From positions 33,927 to 97,926 of the forward strand of contig CAIXGW010000139.1 of the NCBI GenBank assembly GCA_903919145.1: a stretch of 64,000 bases of DNA, read 5' to 3'. The stretch comes from an uncultured Myxococcales bacterium (GTDB lineage Bacteria > Myxococcota_A > UBA9042). The notes below the pieces were generated by a model. It did no database searches, was not told where the DNA came from, and saw only the letters and a list, made by a program, of their open reading frames with translations. Below are positions 29,168 through 64,000 of this stretch, one piece after another (within the stretch, counting starts at the first letter, position 1; each line of letters opens with the position of its first letter). Made by a program: the position numbers and the translations under genes.

Positions 29168-29170
29168 TCC

Positions 29171-40500: not shown

Positions 40501-43500
40501 ACAAGTGCACAGCCGGCAGCTGCCAGCCGGGCACCGCCAAAGTCTGCGACGACGGCCAGGCTTGCACGATCGACAGCTGCAGCCCAGGCGACGGCAGCTG
40601 CGTGTTTGCACCCAAGATCGGCTGTGGCGGCAACTGCAACACCGCCAGCGACTGCAGCGATGGCAACGGCTGCACCGACGACCAGTGCGCTGCCGGCAAG
40701 TGCGCGTTTCCCAACAACACTGCCAGCTGCACGGACAACAACCCGTGCACCCTGCAAGATGCCTGCAGCGGCGGCACCTGCAAGGCCGGCAGCGCCAAGA
40801 CCTGTGACGACAGCAATCCCTGCACCAATGACAGCTGCAATGCCACCACCGGCCTGTGCAATTATGTAGGAAATACAGCAGGGTGTTCGGACAGCGACGC
40901 TTGCACCGCCCCGGACCTGTGCGCCAACAGCAATTGCACACCGGGGGCCAAGAAGACCTGCACAGACAACAACCCGTGCACCAATGATAGCTGCAATCCC
41001 GCCACCGGCGCTTGCGTCAACGCCAACAACAGCGCCGTATGCAACGACAACAACGCCTGCACGTCTGGCGACATCTGCAGCGGCGGCAGCTGCGCTGGCC
41101 CCGTGACCGTGGGCTGCGACGACGGCAAGCTGTGCACAACGGACAGCTGCGACCCGGCCGGCGGCTGCAAGACCGTCAACAACAGCTCGCCGTGCAATGA
41201 CAACAACCTCTGCACCACCGGCGACACCTGCTCGGGCGGCGGCTGCGTGGGCGGGTCCGCACCGGTGTGCAATGACAACAACGCGTGCACCACCGATAGC
41301 TGTGCTGCGGCCATTGGATGCAAGTTCGACGCCAATACCAACGCTTGCGAAGACGGCAACAAGTGCACCCTCAACGACGTCTGCAGCGCTGGAACCTGCA
41401 GCGCCGGCTCGGGCAAGACCTGCACGGACAGCGACACCTGCACGACCGACAGCTGCGATCCAGCCAGCGGATCCTGCGTCTACAAGCCCATCATCGGCTG
41501 CGGCGGCTACTGCGACAGCAGCGCCAACTGCAATGACGGCAACCTCTGCACCGACGACGCCTGCGTGGCCGGAAAGTGCACCAACACTGCCAATACCGCT
41601 AATTGCACTGACAATGACGCCTGCACCACCGGCGACAAGTGCAGCGGCGCAGCCTGCAAGCCCACCGGCACGCTGACCTGCAGCGACGGCAACGTCTGCA
41701 CCAGCGACAGCTGTGTCAAGGCCACTGGTTGCAGCTTTGTCAACAATAGTGCCAGCTGCACAGACAACAATGCCTGTACTACCGGCGACTTGTGCTCGGG
41801 CGGTGCCTGCCTGGGCGGCGCCCCGCCCAGCTGCGAGGACAACAACGGCTGCACGACGGACAGCTGCGACAAGGGCAAGGGCTGCCAGAACCTGGCCAAC
41901 AACGCGCCCTGCGACGATGGCGACGCCTGCACCGCCAATGAGCAATGCGCCAAAGGCAATTGCGTGGCCACCACCGACGTGCTGTGCACTGACAACAACG
42001 CGTGCACCAACGACTCCTGCGACAAAGCCCAGGGCTGCGTGTTCACCAACGTCAGCAACGGCGCCGGCTGCGACGACGGCAAGCCCTGCTCGCTGGGCGA
42101 CAGCTGCCTGGCGGGGCAGTGCAAGGCTGGAGTGGCGGTGTGGGTAGACAGGCTGGCCGGCTCTGTTCCAGCCCCCAACAGCGGCGCTGGCGGCGGCAGC
42201 TATGCGGAGGGCACCGGCGAAAAGGCGGCCTTCAACACCCCCATGGGCATCGCGTTTCACCCAGGGGTCAATGTCCTGGTCGTGGCTGATACCTATAACC
42301 ACCTGATCCGAAAGGTGACGTTGCAGGGAAAGGTCAGCGATATCGCGGGTGTAGCCGGCAAGGGCAGCTATGCCGATGGCCAGGGCAGCAATGCGGCGTT
42401 CAACCTGCCAATGGGCGTCGCCGTGAGACCAGATGGGCAGATCCTGGTCGCTGACACGGGCAACCACCTGATCCGCGCAGTGATGATCGATGGCACCGTT
42501 ACCACTGTAGCTGGTACAGGCAGCGGCGGCAGTCAGGATGGCAGCGTCAAGTCGGCCACCTTCGTAGGGCCGCGCGGCGTGGCGGTCAGCGTGGGAGGTG
42601 TTGCTGCCATCGCGGACACGGGCAATCACATGATTCGCCTGATAAAGCTTAGTGAGGGGCTGGTGGTGACGCTGGCCGGATCTCCCTCAGCTGGGTTCAA
42701 AGACGGCATGGGCAGCGCCGCGCAGTTCAACACTCCCGTTGGCGTGGCCTTTGACACAGCGGGTCGCCTCTACGTGGCGGACCAAAGCAATCACCGGATT
42801 CGCCAAGTCCTGCCCAGCGGACAGGTCTTGACGGTAGCCGGCGATGGCACGGCGGGCATGGCCGACAGCACCAACCCCCTGTTGGCCAAGTTCAACTTCC
42901 CGGCCGGGGTGCTTGTGGCGCCCACGGGGCTGTTTGTGGCTGACAGCTTCAATGGCCGCATCCGCCGCGGCGCAGCCAATGGCGTGGCCACGCTGGCCGG
43001 CTCAGGCACTGGGGCCGTCGATGGGCTCGCGGCCAGCGCCACCTTCTACCTGCCCCAGAGCCTTGCGGCCGATAGCGGCGGCTACCTCTACGTCGCCGAT
43101 GTCTACAACCACTTGATCCGGCGGGTGCGCGACTCCAGTGGGGGGTGCACCATCAATGGCCAGTGCGTCGTGGGCGGCTGGTGGAAGCCGGGAGCCAGCT
43201 GCTACCGCTGCGAGGCAGCCTCCTCTGCCACCGCCTGGACGGGCAAGCCCAACGGCGCGCCGTGTGATGACGGGCTGCTCTGCACCGCTGAAGACCTCTG
43301 CAACTACAAGTCGGGGCCGGTGGCGTGCAACGGCACGGTGGTCACCTGCAACGACGGCAATGCGTGCACCAACGACTCTTGCAGTGCGGCCACCGGGGCG
43401 TGCCAGAACCTGGCCGGCAGCGGCGCCTGCGACGACGGCAGCCCCTGCACCTATCCCGACACGTGCAGCGGCGGCAGCTGCGGGGCCGGCACCCAAAATG

Positions 43501-47110: not shown

Positions 47111-50100
47111 TCAGTAGTTGTTCTTGGTCCACTTGAGGCGGTACGGACGCACGTTGTGCTTGTCCTTTGAGGTCTTGCCCTTGACCTTGACCAAAAAGTA
47201 GCCCTTGAAGTCCTGGTTGGGCACGTTGGCAAAGGCATAGCACGAGTCGGCGGCATCACCGGCATTGGCGCTAGAACAGCTGGCATAGCTGCCGTCAGCA
47301 TTGGTGATTTCCAGGTCATAGTTGATGCCGGTGGGCAAGCCAGAGATGGTCACCGTGTAGCCGGTCCAGTAGCCAAAGATCGGCAAGCGGTAGTAGTCGA
47401 CGTCGCCCTGGCGGTCGATAAACGCCTGGATGTCGCCCTGGGGCCCGGCCAGAATCGGCGCCTTGGCAGGGTCGCCATTGGGTTCGTAGGAGTCGTACTG
47501 GCCGTTGAATTGCATGGGGTTAAGGTACATTCGGTCGCCCCACCAGTCGATTCGTTCGGGGCTCCAGCTGTTCTCGCCAAGTTCATAGCAAGCCATGTAC
47601 TGCCCGTCGCCAAACATCACCTCCATGCGGCCATCGTGGTCCATGTCGGCCACCGTAGAGCTCTGGACGCCGCCGCCCTTGGTGGGCACCGGCCAGCCGG
47701 GCACTGACTTGCCGTTGGCGCCCACGATGTTGTTGCCCGCCAGCTGCTCCATGACGCCATCGCCGTTGAGGTCGGCAAACACCGAGCCGTAGTCGGCGCC
47801 CCAGCTCCACTTGCCGCTGTGGGTCAGGTCCATGGGCAGGCCGCTCAAGTTGCCGCTGGCCAGCACGTTGCCGGTGGCGTCGAGCAGGTAGCCGCCGTTG
47901 GGCGGGAACACCAGCTCGGTCTTGCCGTTGCCGCTGTAGTCGAGCACCGCGGCGCTAGAGGTCCACCAGTACTTTTGGCCAGTGGCCCAGCACTTGTCTG
48001 GATTGGCCGGATCAAGGGGGCAGAAGCGCTTGAAGCTGTCAGAAGCTTTGTCATAGCGCCACGCGTAGATGCGCCCGTCTGGGTGGTCGCCTTCGGATCC
48101 GGAGCCGTAGCCCGAGCCAGCCATCACTTCCAGCACGCCGTCGCCGTCCAGGTCGACCATCACCGGCGAGTAGATTTCCCAGGCGCCCGCGGCGTCGGTG
48201 ACCAAGGTGTGGACCTTGCCCGGGCCCCACTTGCCGTTGCCATCCCAGGTGCCGGCGTTGAGCACGTAGCCAGACCAGATCGAGGTGGCCACGTCAGGCA
48301 CGCCGTCGCCGGTGACGTCTCCTACCGCGGCGCTGCCGTAGCTGCCGCTGATGTCAGCCCTCTTGCCGTTGCGGTCGTAGACGCCGTTCAGGCAGACCAC
48401 GTCCCAGTCAAAATCGGGGCGCGCATCCAGCTGGGCTACCGTGGGCCGCCACCATGAGCTGCTGCAGCCGGGCAGGTCGATCTTCTTTTCGCCCAAGGCG
48501 TTCAGGACCTGGGCGCGGCAGCCCACAATCAGGTCGCCAGTGCCGTCATTGTCAAGATCGACGGGAGCCACCGGGCACTGCACGTCGCCGGGGCCCATAA
48601 AGACTGGCCACTTGCCGGCACACGGCGTGGGGCAGGTCTGGTCCTTGCTGCCATTGCAGTCGTTGTCTTTGCCGTCGCACAAGTCCAAGGCACCTGGGTA
48701 GATGGTGACGTCGGAGTCGTCGCAGTCCCAGTCGGGCGAGCCGTCGCTCTTGACGTCCTTGGCCGTGGCCCAACCGACCGGCACATTGCACTTCTCCTGC
48801 TTGGCGGCGTTGGCCGAGGCAAAGCTGTCGCCGTCATTGTCCTTGTAGATGAGCTGCACCGAAAGGCCATCGTCGATCAGGCTGTTGCAGTCATCGTCCA
48901 GGTCGTTGCAGACTTCCTTGGCGCCGGGGGACATGTTCTTGTTGAAGTCGTTGCAGTCTCCGGACTCGGCGGTGTAGCCCTTGGGGGCCGTGCAGGCGAG
49001 CTGCGACGTGACCGAGCCGTAGCCGTCGCCGTCGTTGTCTTTGTAGAAAGCGATCAAGGTGTTTTCGTCAGCCTGGCTGTTGCAGTTGTCATCGACGCCG
49101 TTGCAGGTCTCTGCCTTGCCCGGATAGACCGCGGCCTCGTTGTCATTGCAGTCGCCGGTCTTGTTGGCTGTCCACTCGCCTGTGGCTTTGCAGTAGCACA
49201 CGGCGGTGACGTTGGCGCCAAACTGGTCTTTGTCTTTGTCTGGATAGAAGTTGCTGCAGCCGGTGGCGCCAATCGGGTCGGTCTGGCCGTCGCAGTTGTC
49301 GTCTGCGCCGTTGCACACTTCGGCGGCGCCTGGCTTGGCGTTGGCGCTGCCGTCGTTGCAGTCGCCGCCCACAAAGGCGGTGTAGGGGTACTTGGCGGCC
49401 CCAAGGCACTGCTTGTCGCCGTCGATGCCGTAGCCGTCCTGGTCGCCGTCTTTGAAGTAGTCGCTGCAGCCCTGGCAGCCCGACTCGTCGGTCTGGCCGT
49501 TGCAGTTGTTGTCCTTGGTGTCCAAGCACTTTTCGGTCTGGGCGGGGTACACGGCCGGGTCGGTGTCCAGGCAGTCGCCGCCCTGCTTGGCGGTGTAATT
49601 GCCGGCCGGCGAGCAGGAGCACTTGGCGGCGCCGATGCCCGCGCCATCGCCATCGACATCGCTGTAGAATTGAATGCATCCTTTGGCATTTTCGTCATTT
49701 TCGCTGCCGTTGCAGTTGTCGTCCTTGCCGTTGCCGCAGGTCTCTGGCTGGGCTGGGTGCACCGCGCCGTCCAGGTCGTTGCAGTCGCCCGCCTGGCTGG
49801 CCACAAAGGTGCCGGTCTTGGCGCAGAGGCACTTCTCGCTGCCCGAACCCCAGCTGTCGCCGTCGCCATCGGCAAACAACTTGATGCAACCGCTGGCATT
49901 TTCTTCATCGGTGGCGCCATTGCAGTTGTCGTCTGCCTGGTTGCAGGCCTCGGCGGCGCTGGGGTACACCTTGGCGTTGCCGTCGTCGCAGTCGCCGCCT
50001 TTTTGGGCCTTGTACTTGCCGCTAGACATGGTCAGGCACTTCTTGTCGCCGTCGATGCCAAAGCCGTCGCCGTCGCCGTCCAGGAACAACACCGTGCAGC

Positions 50101-52621
50101 CCAGGCAGTTTTCTTCGTCGGTCTGGCCATTGCAGTCGTTGTCTTTGGTGTCGCTGCATTTTTCGGCCTGGTTGGGCGCAATGGCCGGGTCCTTGTCATT
50201 GCAGTCGCCGGCGGTCTTGGCGCTGACTTCGCTGGTCGCAGTGCACAGGCAGCTGCCGGCGCCGTCGCCCACGCCATCGCCATCGCCGTCGGCATAGAAC
50301 TTGTTGCAGCCCTGGGCATCCACGTCGTTCTCGCTGCCGTTGCAGTTGTCGTCTTTGCCGTTGCCGCACAATTCCTTGGCCTTGGGGTGGATGGCCGCGT
50401 CGGCGTCATTGCAGTCGCCGCCGCCGCTGGCGCTGTAGGGGGCGGTGGCGCCGCACAGGCACTTGACCAGGGTCACGCCAAAGCCGTCGGCGTCTTCGTC
50501 GAAGTAGAAGGCCTTGCAGCCCTCCGCGTCGGCTTCGTCAATGCCGCTGTCGCAGTCGTCGTCTACGCCGTTGCACACCTCCTTGGCGAGCTTGCTGATG
50601 GCCTTGTTGGCGGGCTGGCAGTCGCTGGCGTTGGGGTCGCCGTCGCCGTCCTTGTCGGGGTCGCAGGCGTCGCCCAGGCCGTCTTCGTCCAGGTCTTTTT
50701 GGTCGGTGTTGGCCACGGCCGGGCAGTTGTCCACCGCTGTCACCTGCGGGCACCCCGCGGCATTGTTGACCACCATGTCGGCGTCGCTGTCGCAGTCGCA
50801 GGCGTCGCCCTGCAGGTCAGTGTCGGCGTCGGCCTGGGCCGGATTGGCAGCCCACGGACAGTTGTCCACGCTGTTGGCCACGCCGTCGGAGTCCCAGTCG
50901 TTCTCGCAGACATCGCCGATCTTGTTGGCATTGACGTCGGCCTGGTCGGCGTTGGACTTGCCGGGGCAGTTGTCGGCGCCGTTGGCCACGCCGTCGCCGT
51001 CCATGTCGGCGTCGCAGGGGTCGCCAGCCAGGTCTTCGTCCAGGTCGGTCTGGCTTGGGTTGGCGGCCAGCGGGCAATTGTCTTTGAGGTCGGCGATGCT
51101 GTCATTGTCGTCATCGTCGTCGCAGGCGTCGCCCTGGCCATCTTTGTCTTGGTTGGCTTGGTCGGTGTTGGGGGCCATGGGGCAATTGTCCAGTCCATTG
51201 GCCACGGTGTCCGAGTCCTGGTCGCCGTCGCACGCGTCGCCAGCGCCATCGCCATCGCCATCCAACTGGTCGGAGTTGGCGGCCAAGGGGCAGTTGTCCT
51301 GGGTCACATCCCCCGGGCAGGCCACGGCGGGGCTGATAGTTCCGGAATTGGCTGGCAGAGGATTGGCGATGCCGTCGCCGTCGCCGTCGCAGTCGCAGGC
51401 GTTGCCCAGGCCGTCGCCGTCGCCGTCTGCCTGGGTGGCGTTGGCCGCCAGCGGGCAATTGTCTTCATTGTCAAAGATCTTGTCATTGTCGTCATCGGGG
51501 TCGCAGGCATCGCCCTGGCCGTCTCCGTCGGTGTCGGTCTGGTCGGCGTTGAGGGTGACCGGGCAATTGTCGGCGGCGTCGCTGGCTCCATCGCCGTCGT
51601 CATCGGCATCCACGCAGTCGGCCTGCGGATCGCCATCGCTGTTGACAAACCCTTCATCTGTCTGCCCAGAGCAGTTGTCGTCAATGTCATTGCACACTTC
51701 CGCCGCGGCACCGGCACCTTGGCACAGCACCTGGCCGCCCACGCACTGGGTCTTGCCCTTGCACTCGCCATAGACGTTCTTGATGGGGCAGTCGACGGCG
51801 GCTACCTCTTCGTCGGTGCCGCCGTCGCAGTCGTCGTCCTTGAGATTGCAGGACTCTGCCTCAGGAATCTGGCCGCCACAGCTGCCCTCGGTGCCGGCGG
51901 TGCAGGTGTAGCTGCCGGCGCAGGTGCCAAAGGCGTTGCTGTTCTTGCAGGCGCCGCTCTTGCCATCGGCACAGCTGCACTGGTTGCCCGGTGGCACGCA
52001 CACGTCGCTGCCCGCCGCCTGCTTGGTGCAGGTGAAGCCGGCGCCGACGCAGCTCTTGCCCTCGCCGCAGGGCTGCACGCAGTGGCTGCCTTTGCCCAGG
52101 TCGACGCACAGGCCCTTGTTGCCCTTGCCCAGGTCGCAGTCGGCGTCTTTGGCGCAAGGCAGGCACTGAAAGGGCGCGCGGTGCAAGCACAAATTCATGA
52201 TGTCGCCGCCTGCAGTGGTCTGCAGGCACTCGTAGTCGCTGGGGCACGCGGTGATGCACGGCTGAGCGCACTCTTTGCCGGCGGGGGTCATCTGGCACAC
52301 CAGCGATGCGCAATCCTCATTGTTTTGGCAGGGGATGCTCTTGTAAGGGACATCCGCGGCCCCCAGATCGATGGCCTGGACGTCTGAACCGGCCGTGTCC
52401 TCTTCCACTTCGGGCTCGGCGCTGTCCAGGGCGTCGGCTTGCCCGTCGGCATCGGCCACTACCGCTGGCGTGCCCTCTACCTTGGTTTCGTCGCTGCAAC
52501 CCGGAGCTGCCAACCCGATGGCCGCAAGGGCCGCCAGCAAGCGAACCAGCCGGAAAAAGCTGAGGTAGGGCAGGGTGTTGGTCTTGGGGCAAGAGGCCGG
52601 GGTGGGCCGCTGAGAGGGCAT
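47111..52621 (-). CDS. Giant (~1836 aa) secreted lipoprotein with many thrombospondin type-3 (TSP3) Ca-binding repeats, MopE-like putative metal-binding CNG-DDNCNG motifs, FG-GAP/VCBS-like segments and a C-terminal beta domain
   Basis: ATG 52621. Signal/lipobox LVRLLAALAAIGLAAPGC|SDET. TSP3-type repeats DxDxDGxxDxxDNCPxxxNxxQxDxD (e.g. DADDDGDGASDAADNCPVTLNADQTDTDGDGQGDACD). Recurring CNGADDNCDGQTDP / CGNGKDDNCNGSENDVDAQGC / CDGKDNDCNGSKDQ motifs. Antisense ORFs across it are rejected. Confidence 0.8.
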   Translation of the reverse strand: MPSQRPTPASCPKTNTLPYLSFFRLVRLLAALAAIGLAAPGCSDETKVEGTPAVVADADGQADALDSAEPEVEEDTAGSDVQAIDLGAADVPYKSIPCQNNEDCASLVCQMTPAGKECAQPCITACPSDYECLQTTAGGDIMNLCLHRAPFQCLPCAKDADCDLGKGNKGLCVDLGKGSHCVQPCGEGKSCVGAGFTCTKQAAGSDVCVPPGNQCSCADGKSGACKNSNAFGTCAGSYTCTAGTEGSCGGQIPEAESCNLKDDDCDGGTDEEVAAVDCPIKNVYGECKGKTQCVGGQVLCQGAGAAAEVCNDIDDNCSGQTDEGFVNSDGDPQADCVDADDDGDGASDAADNCPVTLNADQTDTDGDGQGDACDPDDDNDKIFDNEDNCPLAANATQADGDGDGLGNACDCDGDGDGIANPLPANSGTISPAVACPGDVTQDNCPLAANSDQLDGDGDGAGDACDGDQDSDTVANGLDNCPMAPNTDQANQDKDGQGDACDDDDDNDSIADLKDNCPLAANPSQTDLDEDLAGDPCDADMDGDGVANGADNCPGKSNADQADVNANKIGDVCENDWDSDGVANSVDNCPWAANPAQADADTDLQGDACDCDSDADMVVNNAAGCPQVTAVDNCPAVANTDQKDLDEDGLGDACDPDKDGDGDPNASDCQPANKAISKLAKEVCNGVDDDCDSGIDEADAEGCKAFYFDEDADGFGVTLVKCLCGATAPYSASGGGDCNDADAAIHPKAKELCGNGKDDNCNGSENDVDAQGCNKFYADGDGDGVGDGAGSCLCTATSEVSAKTAGDCNDKDPAIAPNQAEKCSDTKDNDCNGQTDEENCLGCTVLFLDGDGDGFGIDGDKKCLTMSSGKYKAQKGGDCDDGNAKVYPSAAEACNQADDNCNGATDEENASGCIKLFADGDGDSWGSGSEKCLCAKTGTFVASQAGDCNDLDGAVHPAQPETCGNGKDDNCNGSENDENAKGCIQFYSDVDGDGAGIGAAKCSCSPAGNYTAKQGGDCLDTDPAVYPAQTEKCLDTKDNNCNGQTDESGCQGCSDYFKDGDQDGYGIDGDKQCLGAAKYPYTAFVGGDCNDGSANAKPGAAEVCNGADDNCDGQTDPIGATGCSNFYPDKDKDQFGANVTAVCYCKATGEWTANKTGDCNDNEAAVYPGKAETCNGVDDNCNSQADENTLIAFYKDNDGDGYGSVTSQLACTAPKGYTAESGDCNDFNKNMSPGAKEVCNDLDDDCNSLIDDGLSVQLIYKDNDGDSFASANAAKQEKCNVPVGWATAKDVKSDGSPDWDCDDSDVTIYPGALDLCDGKDNDCNGSKDQTCPTPCAGKWPVFMGPGDVQCPVAPVDLDNDGTGDLIVGCRAQVLNALGEKKIDLPGCSSSWWRPTVAQLDARPDFDWDVVCLNGVYDRNGKRADISGSYGSAAVGDVTGDGVPDVATSIWSGYVLNAGTWDGNGKWGPGKVHTLVTDAAGAWEIYSPVMVDLDGDGVLEVMAGSGYGSGSEGDHPDGRIYAWRYDKASDSFKRFCPLDPANPDKCWATGQKYWWTSSAAVLDYSGNGKTELVFPPNGGYLLDATGNVLASGNLSGLPMDLTHSGKWSWGADYGSVFADLNGDGVMEQLAGNNIVGANGKSVPGWPVPTKGGGVQSSTVADMDHDGRMEVMFGDGQYMACYELGENSWSPERIDWWGDRMYLNPMQFNGQYDSYEPNGDPAKAPILAGPQGDIQAFIDRQGDVDYYRLPIFGYWTGYTVTISGLPTGINYDLEITNADGSYASCSSANAGDAADSCYAFANVPNQDFKGYFLVKVKGKTSKDKHNVRPYRLKWTKNNY

Positions 52622-52788
52622 GGAAACCTGCTTGAAAAAGGGACGGCGAGCGCTACGGCAGCCAAGCAGGGCAGCATGCACAGCGGGTACCGATGGGTCA
52701 ATTCGATTCACCACCGGTCGGTCACGCCAATTGCCTCCCGGATCGCCTGACGCAGAGGGGCAGGATGCGCGACCCTGCCCAACGCTTT

Positions 52789-52798
52789 GGCAATTGCC
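52789..52798. promoter_or_regulatory. Perfect 10 bp palindrome GGCAATTGCC 69 nt upstream of zwf (plus a 9/10 copy GCCAATTGCC at 52726-52735 and a GGGCAGG-N9-CCTGCCC hairpin between them); candidate operator
   Basis: Read directly from sequence. The identical 10-mer recurs 58 nt upstream of glgP (60797-60806). See findings. Confidence 0.3.
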
Positions 52799-52866: not shown

Positions 52867-54369
52867 ATGTCCATCGTCCCCGCAGCGCCGCTGCCGCCCG
52901 CCCAGGTCGTGATTTTTGGTGCGTCTGGCGACCTGACGGCGCGCAAGCTGATCCCCGCCCTGGCCGACAGCGCCCGCGCCGGCTCTTTTCGCTGCCCGGT
53001 GCAGGTCATTGGCGTTGCCCGCAGCCCCAAGACCGACGTTTCTTGGCGCGCCGAGCTGCAGCAGTGGCTCACACCCGAGCAGCTAGAGGTGTGGCCGACG
53101 CTGGCTCCCAACATCCACTACGTCGCCATTGGCGAGAGTGCGGCTGGCGATTTTGAGCGGCTCAAGGGCGAGCTCGACCGCTTGGCCGGGCCAGAGGTGG
53201 AGCGAGTCGGCCGCCTGTTCTACCTTGCCATCAAACCTGAACTTTTTGGCAGCACGGTCGAGCAGCTGGCTGCCCAGGGCATGCTGGCGTGCGACCAGGT
53301 GCGCGTCGATGGCTGGCGGCGGGTGGTCATAGAGAAGCCTTTTGGCCGCGACCTGGTGACGGCTCAGTGGCTCAACATCACCCTGCGCAAGCACCTGCGC
53401 GAAGACCAGATCTACCGGATTGACCACTACCTGGGCAAAGAGACCGTGCAGAACGTGCTGGCCTTTCGCTTTCAAAATGCCATCTTTGAGCCCATTTGGA
53501 ACCGCAGCCATGTCGAGTCGGTCGAGATCAGCGTCTGCGAAGAGCTGGGCATGGAGTCCGGCCGCGGTCGCTACTACGACACCGCCGGGGCGCTGCGCGA
53601 TATGGTCGCCAACCACCTGCTGCAGCTGCTGTGTCTGGTGGCCATGGAGCCGCCGGCCAGCCTAGACGCCGATGCGGTCCGCAGTGAAAAAGTCAAGGTT
53701 CTTGATTCATTGGATGTCTACCACAGCCCAGAGGACGTGTGGCAGCACGTGGTACGCGGCCAGTACAGCGCCACCCACAACCAGCCGGGCTACCTGCAGG
53801 AAGAAGGCGTGGCTGGCGAATCGCAGACAGAGACCTATGTGGCCCTGGTAGCGCGTCTGCACAACTGGCGCTGGAACGGCGTCAAATTCTTCTTGCGGAC
53901 CGGCAAAAAACTCAAGCAGCGCTACACCGAGATCATCGTGCGTTTTCGGGTGCCGCCGGTGGACCTGTTTCAGGGTCCGATTCACGCCGATGTCTGCCGG
54001 TTGCGCCCCAACGCGCTCAGCTTTCGCATTCAGCCTGAAGAGGGCATCCGCTTGCATTTTCTGGTCAAGCAGCCGGGTACGGGCCATCTGATGAGGCAGG
54101 CGCACCTTGGGTTTGACTACAAAGAGCTGTTTGGAGCTGCGACGCCGCCGGCCTACCAGCGCCTGCTGATGGATGCCTTGCACGGCAACGCCACCCTGTT
54201 TACCCGCGGAGACGAGGCTGAGGCCGCCTGGCGCTTCTGCGACGCCATCCGCCAGGGCTGGGAAGCCCCGGGGGCGCCGCCGCCGGCCCAGTACGCCAGC
54301 GGCTCGTGGGGGCCGGCAGAGGCAGACGAGCTGTTTCAGGGCTGCGAAGGGATCTGGGGGATACCATGA
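52867..54369 (+). CDS. zwf: Glucose-6-phosphate 1-dehydrogenase
   Basis: ATG 52867 preceded by CACAGGAGGCCCGC. NADP-binding VIFGASGDLTARKLIPAL, active-site RIDHYLGKE, 500 aa. Stop overlaps the pgl ATG (ATGA). Confidence 0.9.
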   Translation: MSIVPAAPLPPAQVVIFGASGDLTARKLIPALADSARAGSFRCPVQVIGVARSPKTDVSWRAELQQWLTPEQLEVWPTLAPNIHYVAIGESAAGDFERLKGELDRLAGPEVERVGRLFYLAIKPELFGSTVEQLAAQGMLACDQVRVDGWRRVVIEKPFGRDLVTAQWLNITLRKHLREDQIYRIDHYLGKETVQNVLAFRFQNAIFEPIWNRSHVESVEISVCEELGMESGRGRYYDTAGALRDMVANHLLQLLCLVAMEPPASLDADAVRSEKVKVLDSLDVYHSPEDVWQHVVRGQYSATHNQPGYLQEEGVAGESQTETYVALVARLHNWRWNGVKFFLRTGKKLKQRYTEIIVRFRVPPVDLFQGPIHADVCRLRPNALSFRIQPEEGIRLHFLVKQPGTGHLMRQAHLGFDYKELFGAATPPAYQRLLMDALHGNATLFTRGDEAEAAWRFCDAIRQGWEAPGAPPPAQYASGSWGPAEADELFQGCEGIWGIP

Positions 54370-55151
54370 TCATCGTTCATGAATGTACGCCCATGCCCGC
54401 CGAGATGGGCGTGCCAACCGTGCATGTGGTGCCCGACGTCGCCGCGGCTGCCGGACCGTGGATCGCCAAAGCGGTGACCCAGGTGATCCAGCAGACCGGC
54501 CGCTGCCGGCTGGCCCTGGCCGGTGGTTCGACGCCTGGGCCGACCTATCGGTGGCTGCGCGACCACCTTGCCACCGAGCTCTACGGCCAGCTGTGGGTGA
54601 CCCTGACCGACGAGCGCGCGCTGCGCTATGACGCGCTGCCGCCCGAGCGCTGGGCTGAGCTGCCGGCCGACTCCAACCTGCGCCTGGTGATGGCCGAGTG
54701 GCTGGCCCACGTTGGCATGGACCCGCGGCGGATTCTGCCGCTGACCTTGGGTGGGGCGGCGGGGCCAGAGTGTGTGCGCTTTGGCCAAGAATTCATGCAG
54801 AAAATCGGCGGAGGCATCGACGTGGCCGTGCTGGGCGTCGGAGCCGATGGCCACATCGCGTCGCTGTTTCCCGGCCATCCGGCGCTGGACGTCCAGGACA
54901 TCTGCTTGGTGGTGCATGACAGCCCCAAGCCACCCGCGGAGCGCATCTCTCTGACAGGCATGGTGTTGCATGGCGCCAGCCACGTGGTGGTGCTGGCAGA
55001 GGGCAAGGCCAAGGCAGAGGTTTTGGGCGCCGTGTACCGCGGTGATCGCCAGCTGCCGGTCGGTCGGCTGCTGCCCCACCGCGACCTGCACTGGGTAGTA
55101 GACAGGGCGCTGGGCAAGGCGCTGGTGGCTGGCGAACTGGAGGATAGATGA
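54366..55151 (+). CDS. pgl: 6-phosphogluconolactonase
   Basis: LALAGGSTPGPTY ... VDVAVLGVGADGHIASLFPGHPAL is the 6PGL/glucosamine-6-P isomerase fold signature. ATG overlaps the zwf stop; its own stop overlaps the gnd ATG. Confidence 0.85.
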   Translation: MIIVHECTPMPAEMGVPTVHVVPDVAAAAGPWIAKAVTQVIQQTGRCRLALAGGSTPGPTYRWLRDHLATELYGQLWVTLTDERALRYDALPPERWAELPADSNLRLVMAEWLAHVGMDPRRILPLTLGGAAGPECVRFGQEFMQKIGGGIDVAVLGVGADGHIASLFPGHPALDVQDICLVVHDSPKPPAERISLTGMVLHGASHVVVLAEGKAKAEVLGAVYRGDRQLPVGRLLPHRDLHWVVDRALGKALVAGELEDR

Positions 55152-56563
55152 GCGAGATGGCGGACATTGGGGTGATTGGCTTGGGCGTGATGGGCGCAGC
55201 TCTGGCGCGCAACCTGAACAGCCGCGGCATGAAAGTGGCGGTGTGGAACTTGGAGGCCCCAGCGGCCGAACGCTTTATGAGCGATCACGGCGCCTTGGGA
55301 TTTGTCCGCGCCCACAGCCTGGCCGAGCTGGTGCAGCGGCTGCAGCCGCCGCGGGCGATCCTGCTGATGGTCACGGCCGGGCCGGCGGTGGATGCCGTGC
55401 TGGGCAGCTTGGCGCCGCACTTGCAGCTGGGCGACACCGTGGTCGACGGTGGCAACAGCCTATACACCGACACCCAGCGCCGCGACACCTGGTGCCGCGA
55501 CCACGGCTTTTCTTTTGTAGGCATGGGCGTTTCTGGCGGCGAGCAGGGCGCGCTGCTGGGCCCAGCCATGATGCCCGGCGGCGATCCCGCCAGCTGGACC
55601 CGTGTCGGGCCGCTGCTGGAGCGGGCCTGTGCGGTGTCAGACAGCGGCCCGTGCATCGCCTGGTGCGGCAGCGGCGGCGCCGGGCACTTTGTCAAAATGG
55701 TGCACAACGGCATTGAGTACGGTGACATGCAGCTGATTGCCGAGGCGTGGTCGCTGCTGCGCGCCGCCGGCCGCCGCCCCACCGCGATGGCAGAGCTGTT
55801 TGGCCACTGGAACCAAGGGGTGCTCAAGTCCTATCTCATGGAGATCACCAGCCAGATTGTCGACCGCCGCGACCCCAAGGGCATCGGCCCGCTGCTGGAC
55901 CAGATCGCCGACATCGCCGGCCAAAAAGGCACCGGGCGCTGGACCGCCGTGGAGGCCCTGCAGCTGGGCGTGCCGATTCCAACGCTGACCGCTGCGGTAG
56001 AAACCCGAGCATTGTCAGGTGATTCGGCAAGGGTCCCCCTGTCTTTGGCCTACGGGCCGCGGCCGCTACAGCCGCCCGACATTGCCGACCAGGACCTGGA
56101 GCAGGCTCTGCTGGCCTGCAAATTGGCCAGCTACAGTCAAGGCTTTCAGCTGCTCGCCGCTGCCAGTCGCAGCTATGGCTTTGGCACCGACCTGGCCAGC
56201 GTGGCGCGGATCTGGACGGCGGGCTGCATCATCCGCGCCGGGCTGCTGGAGGCGATTCGCCATGCCTTTGGCCGCGATCCGGCGCTGCCGGTGCTGGTGC
56301 TGGACCCAGAGATCGGCGCGCTGTGGGCCAACGCCCTGCCGGGGCTGCGGCGCACGGTGGCGCAGGCGGCGCTGGCTGGGGTGCCGGTGCCGGCGATGTC
56401 CGCGAGCTTGGCCTGGGCCGACGGGCTGTGCACCGCCCACGGCAGCGCAGCGCTGCTGCAAGCCCAGCGCGACTGGTTTGGCGCGCACACCTATCGGCGC
56501 CGCGACCAGCCCGACCAGCCCATTCACAGCGACTGGGCCGCCCTGCCGCGGGTCGAGGACTGA
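55148..56563 (+). CDS. gnd: 6-phosphogluconate dehydrogenase, decarboxylating
   Basis: ADIGVIGLGVMGAALARNLNSRGMKVAVWN (Rossmann), GMGVSGGEQGALLGPAMMPGG, HNGIEYGDMQLIAEAW; 471 aa. Confidence 0.9.
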   Translation: MSEMADIGVIGLGVMGAALARNLNSRGMKVAVWNLEAPAAERFMSDHGALGFVRAHSLAELVQRLQPPRAILLMVTAGPAVDAVLGSLAPHLQLGDTVVDGGNSLYTDTQRRDTWCRDHGFSFVGMGVSGGEQGALLGPAMMPGGDPASWTRVGPLLERACAVSDSGPCIAWCGSGGAGHFVKMVHNGIEYGDMQLIAEAWSLLRAAGRRPTAMAELFGHWNQGVLKSYLMEITSQIVDRRDPKGIGPLLDQIADIAGQKGTGRWTAVEALQLGVPIPTLTAAVETRALSGDSARVPLSLAYGPRPLQPPDIADQDLEQALLACKLASYSQGFQLLAAASRSYGFGTDLASVARIWTAGCIIRAGLLEAIRHAFGRDPALPVLVLDPEIGALWANALPGLRRTVAQAALAGVPVPAMSASLAWADGLCTAHGSAALLQAQRDWFGAHTYRRRDQPDQPIHSDWAALPRVED

Positions 56564-56601: not shown

Positions 56602-57831
56602 CTACAGCCTGACCGAAAAAGGCGAGGCGTGCGTCTGGCCCTGCCAGGCTGGCGCAGTGGCGTTGGTCACCACCCGGCCCAAGCGGGCCATGCCTTCTTC
56701 GATCGACGCCGGCTGGCAATTGGAAAAGTTCAGCCGCATGAAGTCGTAGTGCTTCTCATTGGCAAAGAAGCTGCTGCCCGGCACAAAGGCGACCTTGTCG
56801 GCAATGGCGTCGGCAAAGAGGTCTTCGGCGCGGATCTCATTGGGCAGCTGTAGCCACACAAACATGCCGCCGTCGGGGCGGGTCCAGTGGGTTCCCGCGG
56901 GCATGTGGCGGGCCAGGCTGGTGAGCATGGTGGTGCAGCGGTGGCCGTAGGTCTGGCGCAGGACCGTCAGATGACCTTCAAAATCAAAGGTCTGCAGCAG
57001 GCGATGCAGGGCCCGCTGCGACAGGCTGCTGGTGTGCAGGTCGCACGACTGCTTGGCCACCGCCATGGCGCGGATGACCTCGCGGGGGCCGTTGGCAAAA
57101 CCGATGCGCAGACCCGGCGCCAGCGTCTTGGAGAACGAGCTCAGCCGCAGCACCACGCCGTGGCCGTCCAGGGCTAGCAAGCTGGGCAGGTGTTCGCCGC
57201 GGAAGCGCAGCTCGCCGTAGGGATCGTCTTCGATAATGGCGATGCCGTGCTTGGTCGCGATCTCCAGCAGGCGAATGCGCCGCTCCAGGGTCAGCGTGGT
57301 GCCCTTGGGGTTTTGGAAACACGGAACCAGGTAGATCACCCGCACTTTCTCGCGCTCCACCAACGCCTCTAGCTGGTCCACGCACATGCCGTCGTCGTCG
57401 CTGGCCACCGAAGCAAAGCGGGCACCGTAGCCCTCAAAGGCTTGCAGCGCCGCCAGATAGCTGGGTTCTTCGACCGCCACCACCGTGCCCGGATCGATCA
57501 GGACCCGCGCCGCCAGATCGATGCCCTGCTGAGAACCACTTGTAATAAGAGTAGATTCGACATCGGTGGTGACGCCATGGCTGCGCAGCCGGTCGACCAG
57601 CCACGCGCGCAGGCCAGGCAGGCCCTCTGTGGTCGAGTACTGCAGCGCGGCTTTGCCTTCCTGGGCAAACACTTCGGCGTGAGCGGCGGCCATGGCTTCA
57701 ATCGGAAACAACTCTGGCGCCGGCAGGCCGCCGGCAAAAGACAGAATCTCTGGGTGCTCCGTGACCTTGAGAATCTCTCGGACCAAAGAGGGTTTGGCGC
57801 TCTGGGCCCGGTGCGATAGCGTCAGATTCAT
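56602..57831 (-). CDS. PLP-dependent aminotransferase (class I/II; 2-aminoadipate/aromatic aminotransferase-like), translationally coupled to upstream Lrp/AsnC regulator
   Basis: ATG 57831 overlaps the Lrp stop (ATGA). ...LSFAGGLPAPELFP..., LVPCFQNPKGTTLTLERR, LRLSSFSKTLAPGLRIGF (PLP-Lys region), 409 aa. The N-terminal extension of the ORF track is rejected. Confidence 0.8.
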   Translation of the reverse strand: MNLTLSHRAQSAKPSLVREILKVTEHPEILSFAGGLPAPELFPIEAMAAAHAEVFAQEGKAALQYSTTEGLPGLRAWLVDRLRSHGVTTDVESTLITSGSQQGIDLAARVLIDPGTVVAVEEPSYLAALQAFEGYGARFASVASDDDGMCVDQLEALVEREKVRVIYLVPCFQNPKGTTLTLERRIRLLEIATKHGIAIIEDDPYGELRFRGEHLPSLLALDGHGVVLRLSSFSKTLAPGLRIGFANGPREVIRAMAVAKQSCDLHTSSLSQRALHRLLQTFDFEGHLTVLRQTYGHRCTTMLTSLARHMPAGTHWTRPDGGMFVWLQLPNEIRAEDLFADAIADKVAFVPGSSFFANEKHYDFMRLNFSNCQPASIEEGMARLGRVVTNATAPAWQGQTHASPFSVRL

Positions 57832-58304
57832 TTGGATCTCCAATGAGCGGTTTCCGGGGCAACTCGGACCAAAGTCTCCTCCTTGACGGATCGGAGCACA
57901 ATGGTGGTGTGGGTCGAGGTGACGCCGGGCAGCAGCCGCAGGGCGCCGACCAGCAATTCGTCCAGGGTGGTGGGGCTGGTGGTCTTGACCTTGAGAAGGT
58001 ATGAATCCTCGCCAGCGACCCGGTGGCACTCCAGCACTTCATCCATGGCGCCAATGGCAGTCGCAAAGTCGTCAAAGTAGCGCGGATGGTCGATGGACAC
58101 GGCCACAAAGGCGGTGATCTCTTTGCCCAGCATCACCGCGTCGACCTTGGCGGCGTAACCGCGGATCGCCCCGCGCTCCTCCAGCTTGCGGATTCTCTCG
58201 GCCACGGATGGCTGCGAAAGGCCGACCTCGCGCGCCAATTCCTGTTGGGTGGCGCGGCCTTCTTGCTGCAGTCTCTCTAGGATGTGGGTGTCAATCGCGT
58301 CCAT
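57828..58304 (-). CDS. Lrp/AsnC-family transcriptional regulator
   Basis: MDAIDTHILERLQQEGRATQQELAREVGLSQPSVAERIRKLEERGAIRGY (HTH) + RAM domain ...AFVAVSI...ECHRVAGEDSYLLKV; 158 aa. No obvious SD. Confidence 0.85.
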   Translation of the reverse strand: MDAIDTHILERLQQEGRATQQELAREVGLSQPSVAERIRKLEERGAIRGYAAKVDAVMLGKEITAFVAVSIDHPRYFDDFATAIGAMDEVLECHRVAGEDSYLLKVKTTSPTTLDELLVGALRLLPGVTSTHTTIVLRSVKEETLVRVAPETAHWRSK

Positions 58305-58419
58305 ATTGCCAATGTACTATCGTCAACAGGGCCCGTCCAGCTATAAATGATAGTGTGGTGACGACAGCGCGAGCCCTCTGCGCACTCTGGGGGTGGGCCC
58401 GCGGAGGTTGGCAAGCACC

Positions 58420-58585
58420 CCCCACGGCAAGTTCTTTTCCGGTTCCGGAACGGGGGTGGGTTGGGGTACGGAACAAGGCCCAGCAGTAGGACCCAGGACC
58501 TGTGAACATCAACCGGGTGTAACGCGGGTTGCAGGAACGGTCTTGGGTACCGGCTTGCCTTGGGGCCCCAGGATCGCCAAGCTGC
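58420..58585 (-). repeat. Copy B (inverted) of the ~150 nt conserved intergenic element (copy A at 13522-13665); lies in the divergent region between the Lrp/AsnC gene and the radical SAM/SPASM gene
   Basis: Reverse complement aligns to copy A at about 80% identity. Contains GGTTCCGGAACGG (same GTTCCGGAAC palindrome) and a possible enclosing stem GGCAAGC...GCTTGCC. Ends ~10 nt before the GAGGAA SD of the radical SAM gene. Confidence 0.6.
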
Positions 58586-58593
58586 AGGTCCTG

Positions 58594-60000
58594 AGGAACG
58601 CCATGGACGCCATCGACCACTCCCTTGCTTCTGCCGGCTGCGCGCCCTTGCCGCCACTGCTGCCCTTGGTCGATCAGAAGCGCCAGCTGGTGACGGCCGC
58701 TTTGCGCGCCCTGCTGGGGCTGCCGGACCACGTGCCGCTGCAATGGCGCGACCAGGCGGCGGCGGCGGGGCTGGAGCGCGGGCCAGAGCCGGCCTGGTTC
58801 TATCTGCTGGAGATCGGCGCTGCGCCGCAGCAGCTGCAGCTTGAGCTGGCTTCGGCCGCCGGCCCTCAAGCGGCGTACTTTCGCGGCCAGCGGCTGACCC
58901 TGGGCCATCGCGCGCTGCCGGCGGAGGCGCAGGCGATCTGGCAAGCGCTGGTGCGGCGGGCCAGGGCCGTCGACAGCGGCGCCGCGCCAGGGGCCTTGCT
59001 CGACCAGCTGCAGCAGGCGCGCCGGGCCTATGCGCCCTACCACGGTCTTGACGATCAGGAGTTCCACAGCCTGTCTGGCACGGAAGCCTTGCTGCGCCTG
59101 GGTTTTCGCTGCAACCAGGACTGCAGCTTCTGCTGGCAAGGCAGAGAATGGCCCGAGCCCGACCTGCCGATCCTGCTGACCTGGTTGGACCAGCTGGCCG
59201 GCCTGGGGGCCCAGAGCCTGGTGCTGACCGGTGGCGAGCCGACGCTCTACCTGGACAAGCTGCGCGCCGTGGCCGATCGCGCCAGGCAGGTGCATGGATT
59301 GCGCGTCTACGTGCAGAGCAATGGCATCCGCCTGCGCCAGCCAGCGGTGCTGCAGGCCCTGCAAGCTGCGGAAGTCAGCGGCGTGCTGCTTAGCTATCAC
59401 AGCGCCGACGCACAGATTTCCGACGAGATGACCCGCGCGCCCGGCACCCATCGGTTGACCGAGCAGGGCATTGCGGCAGCGCTGAGGGCTGGGCTGGAGG
59501 TCGACCTCAACGTGGTGGTAGAGCGGCGCACTTTGCCCGGCCTGGTAGAGCGCTCGCTGCGGATTCTGCAGGAGTTTGTGCCGCTGCGCCGCCAGCCCTC
59601 GCAGCTGGGGGCCACCTTCTCCTTTCCCACCGACTACCGCGATCCCGCCATCTACGCCAAAGAAGTGGCGCCGCTGGATGAAGTCGGCCCCCTGCTGGCC
59701 CGCGCTCTGCAGCTGCTCAAGGGCGCCGGGGTGCGGGTCTCGCCGCTTGGGGGCTGTGGATTTCCGCTGTGTGTCCTGGCCACGGCGCCAGAGTGCATCG
59801 AGCTGGGGTGGATGAAAAAGCTGGCCCCAGAGCACCTGCGCAGTCGACAGCACCCGCCGGTGTGCGAGAGCTGTCAGCTGCGCGCTTGGTGCCTGGGGCC
59901 GCGCCGCGATTATCTGCAACACCACGGCAGTCGTGGGCTATTGCCCTTTGCGCGCGTGCCGCCGGAAATTGGCGGGCAACTGCAGCGCGGTTCTGCGTGA
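58594..60000 (+). CDS. Radical SAM enzyme with C-terminal SPASM/twitch-like Cys cluster and an unrecognised ~185 aa N-terminal domain
   Basis: ATG 58594 preceded by CTGAGGAACGCC. Radical SAM cluster motif CNQDCSFC at ~aa 188; GGEPTLY glycine-rich SAM motif. C-terminal cysteines GGCGFPLC ... APEC ... VCESCQLRAWC. The 5' extension of the ORF track (58393-) covers repeat copy B and is rejected. Confidence 0.75.
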   Translation, partial: RNAMDAIDHSLASAGCAPLPPLLPLVDQKRQLVTAALRALLGLPDHVPLQWRDQAAAAGLERGPEPAWFYLLEIGAAPQQLQLELASAAGPQAAYFRGQRLTLGHRALPAEAQAIWQALVRRARAVDSGAAPGALLDQLQQARRAYAPYHGLDDQEFHSLSGTEALLRLGFRCNQDCSFCWQGREWPEPDLPILLTWLDQLAGLGAQSLVLTGGEPTLYLDKLRAVADRARQVHGLRVYVQSNGIRLRQPAVLQALQAAEVSGVLLSYHSADAQISDEMTRAPGTHRLTEQGIAAALRAGLEVDLNVVVERRTLPGLVERSLRILQEFVPLRRQPSQLGATFSFPTDYRDPAIYAKEVAPLDEVGPLLARALQLLKGAGVRVSPLGGCGFPLCVLATAPECIELGWMKKLAPEHLRSRQHPPVCESCQLRAWCLGPRRDYLQHHGSRGLLPFARVPPEIGGQLQRGSA

Positions 60001-60028
60001 GACGGCAAACCATCGCGGTTTCGGGCCG

Positions 60029-60060
60029 GGAGCCTGTCTGAACTGTGCCCTACAGGCTCC
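60029..60060. terminator. Hairpin with perfect 9 bp stem GGAGCCTGT-(14 nt)-ACAGGCTCC between convergent radical SAM and hsp20 genes; possible bidirectional terminator (no U-tract)
   Basis: Read directly from sequence at 60029-60060; immediately followed by the 18 bp tandem repeat array. Confidence 0.3.
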
Positions 60061-60063
60061 GAG

Positions 60064-60127
60064 ATCACTGTCTTGGCTCAGGTCACTGTCTTGGCTCAGG
60101 TCACTGTCTTGGCTCTGGTCACTGGCC
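60064..60127. repeat. Tandem direct repeat, 3.5 x 18 bp (GTCACTGTCTTGGCTCAG), in the 67 nt gap between the radical SAM stop and the hsp20 stop
   Basis: ATCACTGTCTTGGCTCAG / GTCACTGTCTTGGCTCAG / GTCACTGTCTTGGCTCTG / GTCACTGGCC, read directly. Confidence 0.9.
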
Positions 60128-60131
60128 CGCC

Positions 60132-60572
60132 TCAGTTCATGGCCTTGATGGTGACCTTGCGCGGCTGAGCCTCGGCCTTCTTGGGCAGCTCGATGCGCAG
60201 CACGCCGTCTTTGACCGTGGCCATGATGTGGTCGGCCTGCACGTTGTTGGGCAGGGTGAACGACCGCGTGAAGGAGCCGTAGCTGCGCTCGATGCGGTGG
60301 TAGCTGTCTTTCTTCTCTTCTTTCTCAAGCTTGCGCTCGCCGCTGACCGTCAGCGTCTGGGCTTCGACATCGATGTGCATGTCGTCGAGCTTGACCTCGG
60401 GCAGGTCGAACTTGAGCGTGTACTTGTCGGTGTCTTCGTAGATGTCCACAGTGGGTTGAAACTGCTTGACCTGCGCGCCGCGGTAGCCTTCGGTGCGAGT
60501 GTCGAGCATCTTCTGCAGCTCGCCTTGCAGGGTGTCAATGTCAGACCAGGGGTTCCAGCGCATCAGAGTCAT
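60132..60572 (-). CDS. Small heat-shock protein, Hsp20/alpha-crystallin family
   Basis: ATG 60572 preceded by CCGGAGGATGAG. Alpha-crystallin domain ...FQPTVDIYEDTDKYTLKFDLPEVKLDDMHIDVEAQTLTVSGERK...SYGSFTRSFTLPNNVQADHIMATVKDGVLRIELPK; 146 aa. Confidence 0.9.
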   Translation of the reverse strand: MTLMRWNPWSDIDTLQGELQKMLDTRTEGYRGAQVKQFQPTVDIYEDTDKYTLKFDLPEVKLDDMHIDVEAQTLTVSGERKLEKEEKKDSYHRIERSYGSFTRSFTLPNNVQADHIMATVKDGVLRIELPKKAEAQPRKVTIKAMN

Positions 60573-60796
60573 CTCATCCTCCGGTTGGGCGGCCAGCTCA
60601 CTTGGGCGGACCGCCATGGTTCCACAGGTAGAACGGCTGCCGGCTTCCAACCGCAGGGCCCGCTGACCGTTCGACGTGGAGATAGGCAAGGACGGTTTGA
60701 TCGGAAGTCAAGGGGTATTCGTATTGAATATCAAGCCGTTGTGAGAGGGTCTGGCTGAACCTATCAAGTAAATCCGTCGCTCGCTGGCCGTCAAGG

Positions 60797-60806
60797 GGCA
60801 ATTGCC
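60797..60806. promoter_or_regulatory. Perfect 10 bp palindrome GGCAATTGCC 58 nt upstream of glgP (same motif as upstream of zwf); overlaps a second inverted repeat TTGCC-N7-GGCAA
   Basis: Read directly: AAGGGGCAATTGCCAACCGCCGGCAACAGG, in the hsp20/glgP divergent intergenic region. Confidence 0.3.
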
Positions 60807-60863
60807 AACCGCCGGCAACAGGGCCACCATCAGGGACACTGTCTAGCAAACGCGGAGGGCGCA

Positions 60864-63464: not shown

Positions 63465-64000
63465 ATGACGCAAGACCCGCCGCCCCCCTTGACCGCCGCC
63501 CTCCGCCCTTCTCTGACCGAAGATGGCCGGCGCATTCGTGCGCGGCTGCGCAAGCAGGCCACCCACCGGGCTCTGGTTGACGCCGCTGCGCGGGCCTTTG
63601 GCGAGGCTGGCTATCTGGCCACGCCGCTAGAGCAGATCTGCGCCTATGCGCGCGTCACCAAGGGCACCTTCTACGAGCACTTTCCTAGCAAGGCTGACGT
63701 TTTTGGCGCCGTGCTAGACGACTTGGTCGCGCGCTTGACCCAGGCCGTGCAAGGGGTAGAGCTGGGGCCCGCTGCAGCGCCACCGCAGCAGCAGCTGGCG
63801 GGCAACCTGCTCAGAGTCCTGGCGGTTCTGCTGGCCGATCGCCAGGCGGCGCGGCTGCTGTTGCTCGAGGCCGGCCAGGAGCCGCAGGTGCGCGGCAAAG
63901 TCCAGGCGCTGCAAGACTTTGCCCGCGGGATGATGAGGCAGGCGCTCATCGACGGCAGCCCCGCTGGCCTGGTGCGGCCGCTGCACGCCGAGCTGGCCTC
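63465..64000 (+). CDS. TetR/AcrR-family transcriptional regulator (3'-truncated by window end)
   Basis: ATG 63465. HTH region RALVDAAARAFGEAGYLATPLEQICAYARVTKGTFYEHFPSKADVF. No stop before 64000. No obvious SD, so the start is uncertain. Confidence 0.65.
   Translation, partial: MTQDPPPPLTAALRPSLTEDGRRIRARLRKQATHRALVDAAARAFGEAGYLATPLEQICAYARVTKGTFYEHFPSKADVFGAVLDDLVARLTQAVQGVELGPAAAPPQQQLAGNLLRVLAVLLADRQAARLLLLEAGQEPQVRGKVQALQDFARGMMRQALIDGSPAGLVRPLHAELA

Follow-up and report, generated by a model that had tools for sequence, protein, structure and literature searches.

The palindromic 10-mer GGCAATTGCC, present a short distance upstream of both glgP and the zwf-pgl-gnd operon in a 64-kb stretch of DNA from an uncultured member of the Myxococcota (the whole of which is referred to here as the window), is probably a genuine cis-element linked to glgP. 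The chances are about even that it also governs zwf-pgl-gnd in the present genome, and a regulon shared by zwf and glgP is plausible. The explanation as a whole, namely that the 10-mer would be the site of a dimeric regulator controlling glgP and that zwf-pgl-gnd would since have been added to the same control, is offered tentatively, its prospects falling a little short of even.

Palindromic sites upstream of zwf and glgP

There are exactly two copies of GGCAATTGCC in the window, at 52789-52798 and 60797-60806, and, as the initial annotation had reported, they are positioned 69 and 58 nt from the ATG codons of zwf (52867) and glgP (60864), respectively. These distances are similar, one helical turn apart, and GGAGG-type ribosome binding sites precede both start codons. 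The 9/10 copy (52726-52735) and the inverted repeat that it had placed between the zwf-side site and the lipoprotein gene are also present, and its calls for zwf-pgl-gnd, glgP and a divergent gene for a giant lipoprotein were borne out by Pfam; the GC content, which it had given as ~70%, is actually ~67%. The sites and genes of the region are as follows.

47111-52621, minus strand: MopE/TSP3 lipoprotein, 1836 aa, divergent from zwf (Pfam)
52726..52735, no strand assigned: 9/10 copy GCCAATTGCC, 105 nt from the lipoprotein ATG
52758..52780: inverted repeat GGGCAGG-N9-CCTGCCC, between both zwf-side copies; of a kind common in the window
52789..52798, no strand assigned: perfect palindrome GGCAATTGCC, 69 nt 5′ of the zwf ATG and 168 nt from the divergent lipoprotein ATG
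52867..56563, plus strand: zwf-pgl-gnd operon, putative target (Pfam, public gene calls)
52867-54369, plus strand: zwf (G6PD) (Pfam)
54366-55151, plus strand: pgl (6-phosphogluconolactonase) (Pfam)
55148-56563, plus strand: gnd (6PGD) (Pfam)
56602-57831, minus strand: aminotransferase (Pfam, public gene calls)
57828..58304, minus strand: Lrp/AsnC-family regulator, candidate, co-transcribed with the aminotransferase
58603-60000, plus strand: radical-SAM protein (Pfam, public gene calls)
60132-60617, minus strand: hsp20 (Pfam, public gene calls)
60797..60806, no strand assigned: perfect palindrome GGCAATTGCC, 58 nt 5′ of the glgP ATG and ~180 nt from the divergent hsp20 ATG
60816..60825, no strand assigned: degenerate copy GGCAACAGGG (6/10), aligned by eye with the 9/10 site GGCAATAGCC of locus L168
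60864..63410, plus strand: glgP (glycogen phosphorylase), the target with the best support from relatives
63465..64000, plus strand: TetR-family regulator, candidate, clipped by the window end; 238 aa at full length in L175

Stop and start codons overlap within zwf-pgl-gnd, and the TetR gene starts 54 nt past the end of glgP. Extension of the locus past the window end adds ~850 bp; the other assemblies of the same species (L081, L082, L175 and L176) are >99.9% identical to the window and uninformative.

With its flank, the copy at 52789-52798 reads TTGGCAATTGCC and has 12 nt in common with the glgP copy, in the opposite orientation. This 12-nt identity, GGCAATTGCCAA, inverted in one perfect copy relative to the other, is the sole exception to the absence of any consensus wider than 10 bp when the flanks of all copies were compared by eye. 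The centres of GCCAATTGCC and of the perfect zwf-side copy are 63 bp apart (~6 helical turns), a spacing that would allow cooperative binding. The GGGCAGG-N9-CCTGCCC repeat is unremarkable and was set aside, as 65 comparable 7-bp inverted repeats occur in the window, ~1 per kb.

Occurrence expected by chance

The expected count of GGCAATTGCC in the window is 0.07 from base composition and 0.16 from dinucleotide shuffles, with at least two copies present in 3 of 100 shuffles. The ~0.1 copies expected according to the initial annotation is a fair figure for a single word, but ignores the 1024 palindromes implicitly tested. Palindromic 10-mers that are repeated number 24 in the window vs 21-29 in Markov simulations, and those with at least four A/T positions 5 vs 2-4; since such recurrence matches the simulations, the count alone carries no meaning and it is the placement that matters. 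With maximal ORFs, intergenic DNA makes up ~5% of the window, and both exact copies and the 9/10 copy are inside that share. Sequences with ≤1 mismatch are intergenic in 4 of 15 cases in the window, four of the coding ones being copies of a single repeated unit, GGCAATTGTC, in the gene for the giant lipoprotein, and a palindromic 10-mer common to two intergenic regions was obtained in 45 of 1,000 simulations (4.5%). This intergenic-sharing result (P = 0.045) is post hoc and suggestive. At ≤2 mismatches there is no intergenic excess in the window (4 of 84). Across ~2 Mb of other retrieved loci, the exact 10-mer has a frequency of only about one per 300 kb. The sole further intergenic match at ≤1 mismatch, GGCAATCGCC at 32117-32126, has a broken centre and is located between the PBP1C and class IV aminotransferase genes, the second of which has an uncertain true start.

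Recurrence upstream of glgP in related genomes

GlgP has closer relatives than Zwf, with 80% identity at L168 and 77% at L166, L167 and L172, and the window, L168 and L166/L172 lineages are roughly equidistant from one another. For the test in relatives, the motif and the target region were set in advance from the window, with L168 and L166/L172 as two independent related lineages. In 144 kb of related Myxococcota loci, 3 of the 13 matches with ≤1 mismatch fall within 1.6 kb of glgP-upstream DNA, an enrichment with a binomial P of 4e-4 and, when measured against 1.1 Mb of other GC-rich loci, a Poisson P of 8e-5. It is mainly because of this recurrence upstream of glgP that the element is judged likely to be real.

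L168 retains, as syntenic orthologs, both the aminotransferase-Lrp/AsnC gene pair and the TetR gene and, as it has neither the radical-SAM gene nor hsp20, its Lrp/AsnC gene and glgP are divergent over 380 bp. Three motif-like sites are present in these 380 bp: GGCAATTGCT (9/10), GGCAATTCTG (7/10) and GGCAATAGCC (9/10). GGCAATAGCC is 59 nt before the glgP start codon, a distance as in the window, and GGCAATTCTG is the positional ortholog of the window site at 60797, with the left half (GGCAATT) and the left flank, CGTCAAGGGG, kept and the right half diverged. In L166, L167 and L172, where the neighbourhood differs, two small ORFs flank a perfect GGGCAATTGCCC, located 260 nt upstream of glgP; in L166, the palindrome is 21 nt before an ORF start. 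This L166 palindrome is within TTGCCCGGGCAATTGCCC (L166 9729-9746), three alternating copies of TTGCCC and its complement that give two overlapping 12-bp palindromes, of which L173 and L174 keep only the second dyad, through symmetric substitutions.

The GlgP proteins of L173 and L174 are 98% identical to that of L166, and the orthologous place in both loci reads GGACAACTGTCC, with 3 changes in 12 positions, a frequency equal to the neutral-like rate of far-upstream non-coding DNA (26%); the 61 nt directly 5′ of glgP contain a single difference between L166 and L173/L174. As two of the three mirror each other (GGGC..GCCC to GGAC..GTCC), the dyad is retained, and the position that varies symmetrically also varies in the 9/10 copy of the window. 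Such changes could reflect a tolerated position, a structural constraint or nothing. The glgP-side pattern, as read from these alignments, is best described as recurrence with turnover and not as positional conservation: within the control region, individual sites would be replaced, with no lasting change in how many there are or how close they are to the start codon. The operator proposed in the initial annotation is thus upheld as a putative cis-element tied to glgP that recurs in L168 and in L166/L172, but not as a positionally conserved one. The matches listed in a metagenome scan with GlgP are all loci of 56-64% identity, and none of those listed has a promoter-proximal motif.

The zwf loci of relatives

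The nearest Zwf is 72% identical to that of the window, and the nearest matches in the genome collection are from uncultured Myxococcales MAGs; proteins identical to those of the window are encoded on ENA/NCBI contigs. The gaps upstream of zwf in L001, L083, L084, L085, L170 and L171 (68-72% identity) contain no copy of the 10-mer with ≤2 mismatches. In the five loci other than L170 (68-71% identity), zwf-pgl-gnd comes after a co-directional gene and adjoins a cytochrome oxidase cluster, whereas the operon of L170 faces a gene for a P-type ATPase. A half-site, TTTGGCAAT, which comprises the left half with its flank as in the window, is present only in L171, 47 nt before the zwf start. Footprinting of both promoters in relatives, as first suggested for this DNA, recovers the motif upstream of glgP, but not at these six zwf loci, which have a different upstream context. 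As the upstream context differs, the zwf promoter region of the window is presumably lineage-specific or new and, with six zwf loci lacking the motif, the case for a shared regulon is drawn from the present genome alone. The L168-lineage contig ends at the aminotransferase gene, which places its zwf locus outside the comparison. An array of ~33-nt tandem repeats (accagtacttcaccggaggtgtgcagacc) is present upstream of zwf in L170 (6230-6560).

Promoters, RNA elements and operator classes

A scan for consensus sigma-70 promoters called none at either palindrome. Weak candidates are visible by eye, TTGCCA-N17-CACCAT for glgP and TTGCCG-N18-TTTACT for zwf, the right half of the 60797-60806 palindrome, TTGCCA, being -35-like. 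A sigma-54 promoter (TGGCAC-N5-TTGC) was rejected on spacing, as TGGCAATTGCC has TGGCA and TTGC 1 nt apart, not 5. LacI/GalR-type operators are 14-16-bp palindromes with a central CG step, and this class was rejected since the centre here is AATT, not CG, the half-sites abut and no LacI-family protein was found in the window. A HexR/RpiR operator was rejected as no RpiR/SIS protein was found with Pfam and NCBIfam in selected ORFs of the window and in the gene calls of L081 and L175. Sigma-32 promoters have the consensus CTTGAAA-N13-15-CCCCATnT, and a sequence resembling such a heat-shock promoter, CTTGATATTCAATACGAATACCCCTTGACTT, is present upstream of hsp20 (60707-60737, minus strand), ~90 nt before the hsp20 start and separate from the palindrome.

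Candidate regulators

Only three proteins with domains of DNA-binding regulators were found in the window plus its 850-bp extension: an Lrp/AsnC, a TetR and a ParB/Noc-like protein. The RpiR/HexR-, LacI- and GntR-family regulators that had been suggested for the site are not encoded nearby; the only regulators in its neighbourhood are TetR and Lrp/AsnC. The TetR protein matches only generic TetR models (TetR_N) and is far below every equivalog cut-off. An ortholog with 79% identity is encoded downstream of glgP in L168, and the TetR gene and the site are both present in the window and in L168; L166/L172 have the site without a TetR gene within 10 kb. With only 54 nt between glgP and tetR, the predicted operator upstream of glgP would also autoregulate TetR. 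In L168, tetR is separated from glgP by a 580-bp non-coding insert that contains a ~70-nt direct repeat (L168 4830-4960). Also in L168, GGCCAATTGGAC (5089-5100), with the palindromic core CCAATTGG, is located ~110 nt before the TetR start codon; this might be taken as a weak hint of TetR autoregulation, and is not significant alone.

In L168, the Lrp/AsnC gene and glgP are transcribed divergently, and the 380 bp between them contain four half-sites (three GGCAAT and one ATTGCC). In the window, the region upstream of the Lrp/AsnC gene (58305-58602) has no match to the 10-mer with ≤2 mismatches, and contains a lone ATTGCC that touches the start codon. Co-transcription with the aminotransferase suggests a role for this regulator in amino-acid metabolism. 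The window (58307-58324) and L168 (1709-1726) share an identical 18-nt block, GCCAATGTACTATCGTCA, 2-3 nt before the Lrp/AsnC start codon and amid diverged surroundings; it may be the regulator's own promoter or operator. In the L166 lineage, in which the site is present, the DNA up to 10 kb from glgP includes neither a TetR nor an Lrp gene, and a regulator encoded elsewhere is therefore equally possible. We list the TetR gene as the first candidate binder and Lrp/AsnC as the second.

Other features of the window

The radical-SAM and hsp20 genes, positioned between Lrp/AsnC and glgP, are absent from the closest relative (window 58603-60617; L168 1706-2085), and other assemblies of the same species break at ~59311 and ~60678; together, these suggest a recent or polymorphic insertion. 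The two genes converge on a gap with an 18-nt tandem repeat, TCACTGTCTTGGCTCAGG, in 3.3 copies with 97% matches (60065-60124). Two genes encode giant cysteine-rich proteins: one of 2491 aa with 17 Dicty_CTDC repeats plus NHL repeats (37401-44876, plus strand) and one of 1836 aa with 10 MopE and 5 TSP3 repeats and a lipoprotein signal (47111-52621, minus strand). Both of these repeat genes have a strong A/T skew, and the second has an internal DNA repeat that bears GGCAATTGTC four times. At 23090-31600, the gene directly after that for a bacterial alpha-2-macroglobulin (2025 aa) encodes a penicillin-binding protein of the PBP1C type; A2M-PbpC is a known gene pairing.

Proposed mechanism

In the explanation that we favour, GGCAATTGCC would be recognized by a homodimeric regulator with control over glgP in a clade of uncultured Myxococcota. 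A relocation in the present genome would have brought zwf-pgl-gnd alongside the glgP neighbourhood and, in its new divergent promoter region, the operon would have gained one perfect and one 9/10 copy of the site; glycogen breakdown and the oxidative pentose-phosphate branch would then probably answer to the same protein. Perfect dyads centred on AATT are typical sites for helix-turn-helix dimers with contacts to outer GGC/GCC triplets, and from the dyad symmetry and the AATT core we infer that a protein may bind at the palindrome, as a dimer. It would presumably act at or just upstream of the -35 region: the -35-like TTGCCA and TTGCCG, together with the distance of 58-69 nt between sites and start codons, make repression by promoter occlusion the favoured mode. 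Alternatively, if the zwf promoter were TTTACT-N17-TACGGT, the site centre would be near -60, the position of an activator. With palindromic sites in divergent intergenic regions, the lipoprotein gene and hsp20 could equally well be the targets.

Alternative explanations

All recurrence of the motif in relatives is upstream of glgP, the six related zwf loci do not have it, and the zwf-side sites, between two divergent genes, are 105 and 168 nt away from where the lipoprotein gene starts. This would also fit a glgP-linked site that is real and zwf-side copies that are incidental, or that serve the divergent lipoprotein gene, with no shared regulon. We regard that as unlikely, however, given that two high-quality copies in a 245-bp region are improbable against a background of ~0.05 matches per kb, that the proximal copies are at near-equal distances from zwf (69 nt) and glgP (58 nt), and that L171 retains TTTGGCAAT 47 nt before the zwf start. 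It could also be mere coincidence that the same 10-mer is present in two unrelated promoters, the matches in relatives being equally due to chance. Repeated palindromic 10-mers are the rule in the window (24 observed; 21-29 simulated), at least two copies of this one arise in 3 of 100 shuffles, the intergenic-sharing P of 0.045 was applied post hoc, matches with ≤2 mismatches have no intergenic enrichment (4 of 84), and the site is gone in L173 and L174 and half gone in L168. Set against these are the pre-set test in relatives, with P ~1e-4 to 4e-4, and the scarcity of the exact 10-mer, found only ~once per 300 kb in ~2 Mb of other loci, which make coincidence quite unlikely.

A core promoter element, rather than an operator, might also account for the shared bases, either with TTGCC(A/G) as the -35 hexamer of rightward promoters or, in a variant, with CGTCAAGGGGCAATT as part of a leftward promoter, TTGACG-N17-TTACTT on the other strand. 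Consistent with this, the leftward hexamers and their spacing are conserved between the window and L168, L168 conserves only the left half and the left flank, and the conserved blocks, ATCAAGTAA and GTCAAGGGG, have a diverged spacer of near-constant length between them, as promoter hexamers would. A -35 hexamer would, however, cover no more than 6 of the 10-12 bases in common and would leave the dyad symmetry, the second zwf-side copy and the extra L168 copies unexplained; with the L166 palindrome, 21 nt before an ORF start, too near for a -35 and the promoter scan empty at both sites, we consider a promoter element improbable. The symmetric nature of two of the three substitutions in L173 and L174, which preserves pairing, would be expected of a small RNA or DNA hairpin retained for its structure and not for its sequence. 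Such a hairpin is nevertheless highly improbable, as the stem has only 3-4 bp with a 4-nt loop, the predicted RNA fold of the zwf leader is no better than that of shuffled sequence (z = 0.73), there is no Rfam match at gathering score anywhere in the window, and the positions relative to genes vary among lineages. The reading that we retain is the dimeric-regulator site at glgP with later addition of zwf-pgl-gnd.

Comparison with known regulatory systems

In Pseudomonas and other Proteobacteria, zwf-pgl-eda/edd-glk are preceded by operators of HexR, a regulator of the RpiR family, and there, as proposed here, a palindromic site in the zwf promoter links the oxidative branch with other central carbon genes through one dimeric repressor. 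The HexR motif, a palindrome of the TGTA-N-TACA type and rich in A/T, is longer than GGCAATTGCC and differs from it in sequence. The hexR gene usually adjoins zwf, and glgP is not a classical HexR target; in contrast, the surroundings of zwf and glgP here encode no RpiR/SIS protein. The element resembles HexR in functional logic, but is not a member of the HexR system.

TetR-family repressors can control an adjacent gene through a short palindromic operator, as exemplified by the 12-bp site of SlmA and the 14-16-bp sites of KstR and RutR, and the 10-12-bp perfect palindrome is similar to these; a TetR gene directly follows glgP, an order kept in L168. TetR genes are, however, more often divergent from their targets, whereas this one is downstream of glgP and not divergent, and the motif in L166 is present without TetR within 10 kb. 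An Lrp/AsnC protein would be in keeping with the location of its gene between the zwf operon and glgP, and the multiple sites and 63-bp phasing fit an oligomer that wraps DNA. Lrp-type sites are 13-15 bp, with an odd centre, and much more A/T-rich; here, the site is shorter and even-centred, the partner gene encodes an aminotransferase, and the Lrp/AsnC gene is absent near glgP in L166.

In a literature search, the 10-mer GGCAATTGCC was seen only in primers and oligonucleotides, never as an operator, and a search on the regulation of Myxococcus glgP gave nothing relevant. The octamer GCAATTGC was found in one operator only, the Fur-type operator of Magnetospirillum feoAB1, as the tail of a 25-bp footprint with the symmetry TTGCAAATCATTTGCAA and an unrelated architecture (PMC4506495).

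Implications

The kind of element described here, a short palindromic operator, is ordinary, and the proposed regulon is based on 64 kb of this genome. That a novel regulator-operator pair in an uncultured Myxococcota family couples glgP to the pentose-phosphate operon, with zwf recruited only after a rearrangement beside the glgP neighbourhood, is possible rather than probable; if true, it would show, on a small and datable scale, a regulon growing by the gain of sites, and relatives that have the zwf operon elsewhere, without the site, would make it a clean example of an operon joining a regulon. The 10-mer is a concrete, testable sequence, for which GGCAGCTGCC is a mutated version of the site, and there are two concrete candidate proteins. 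Glycogen turnover is linked to development and survival in cultured relatives and, if the element is real, it would be the first cis-regulatory handle on the use of stored carbon in a myxobacterial lineage known only from metagenomes.
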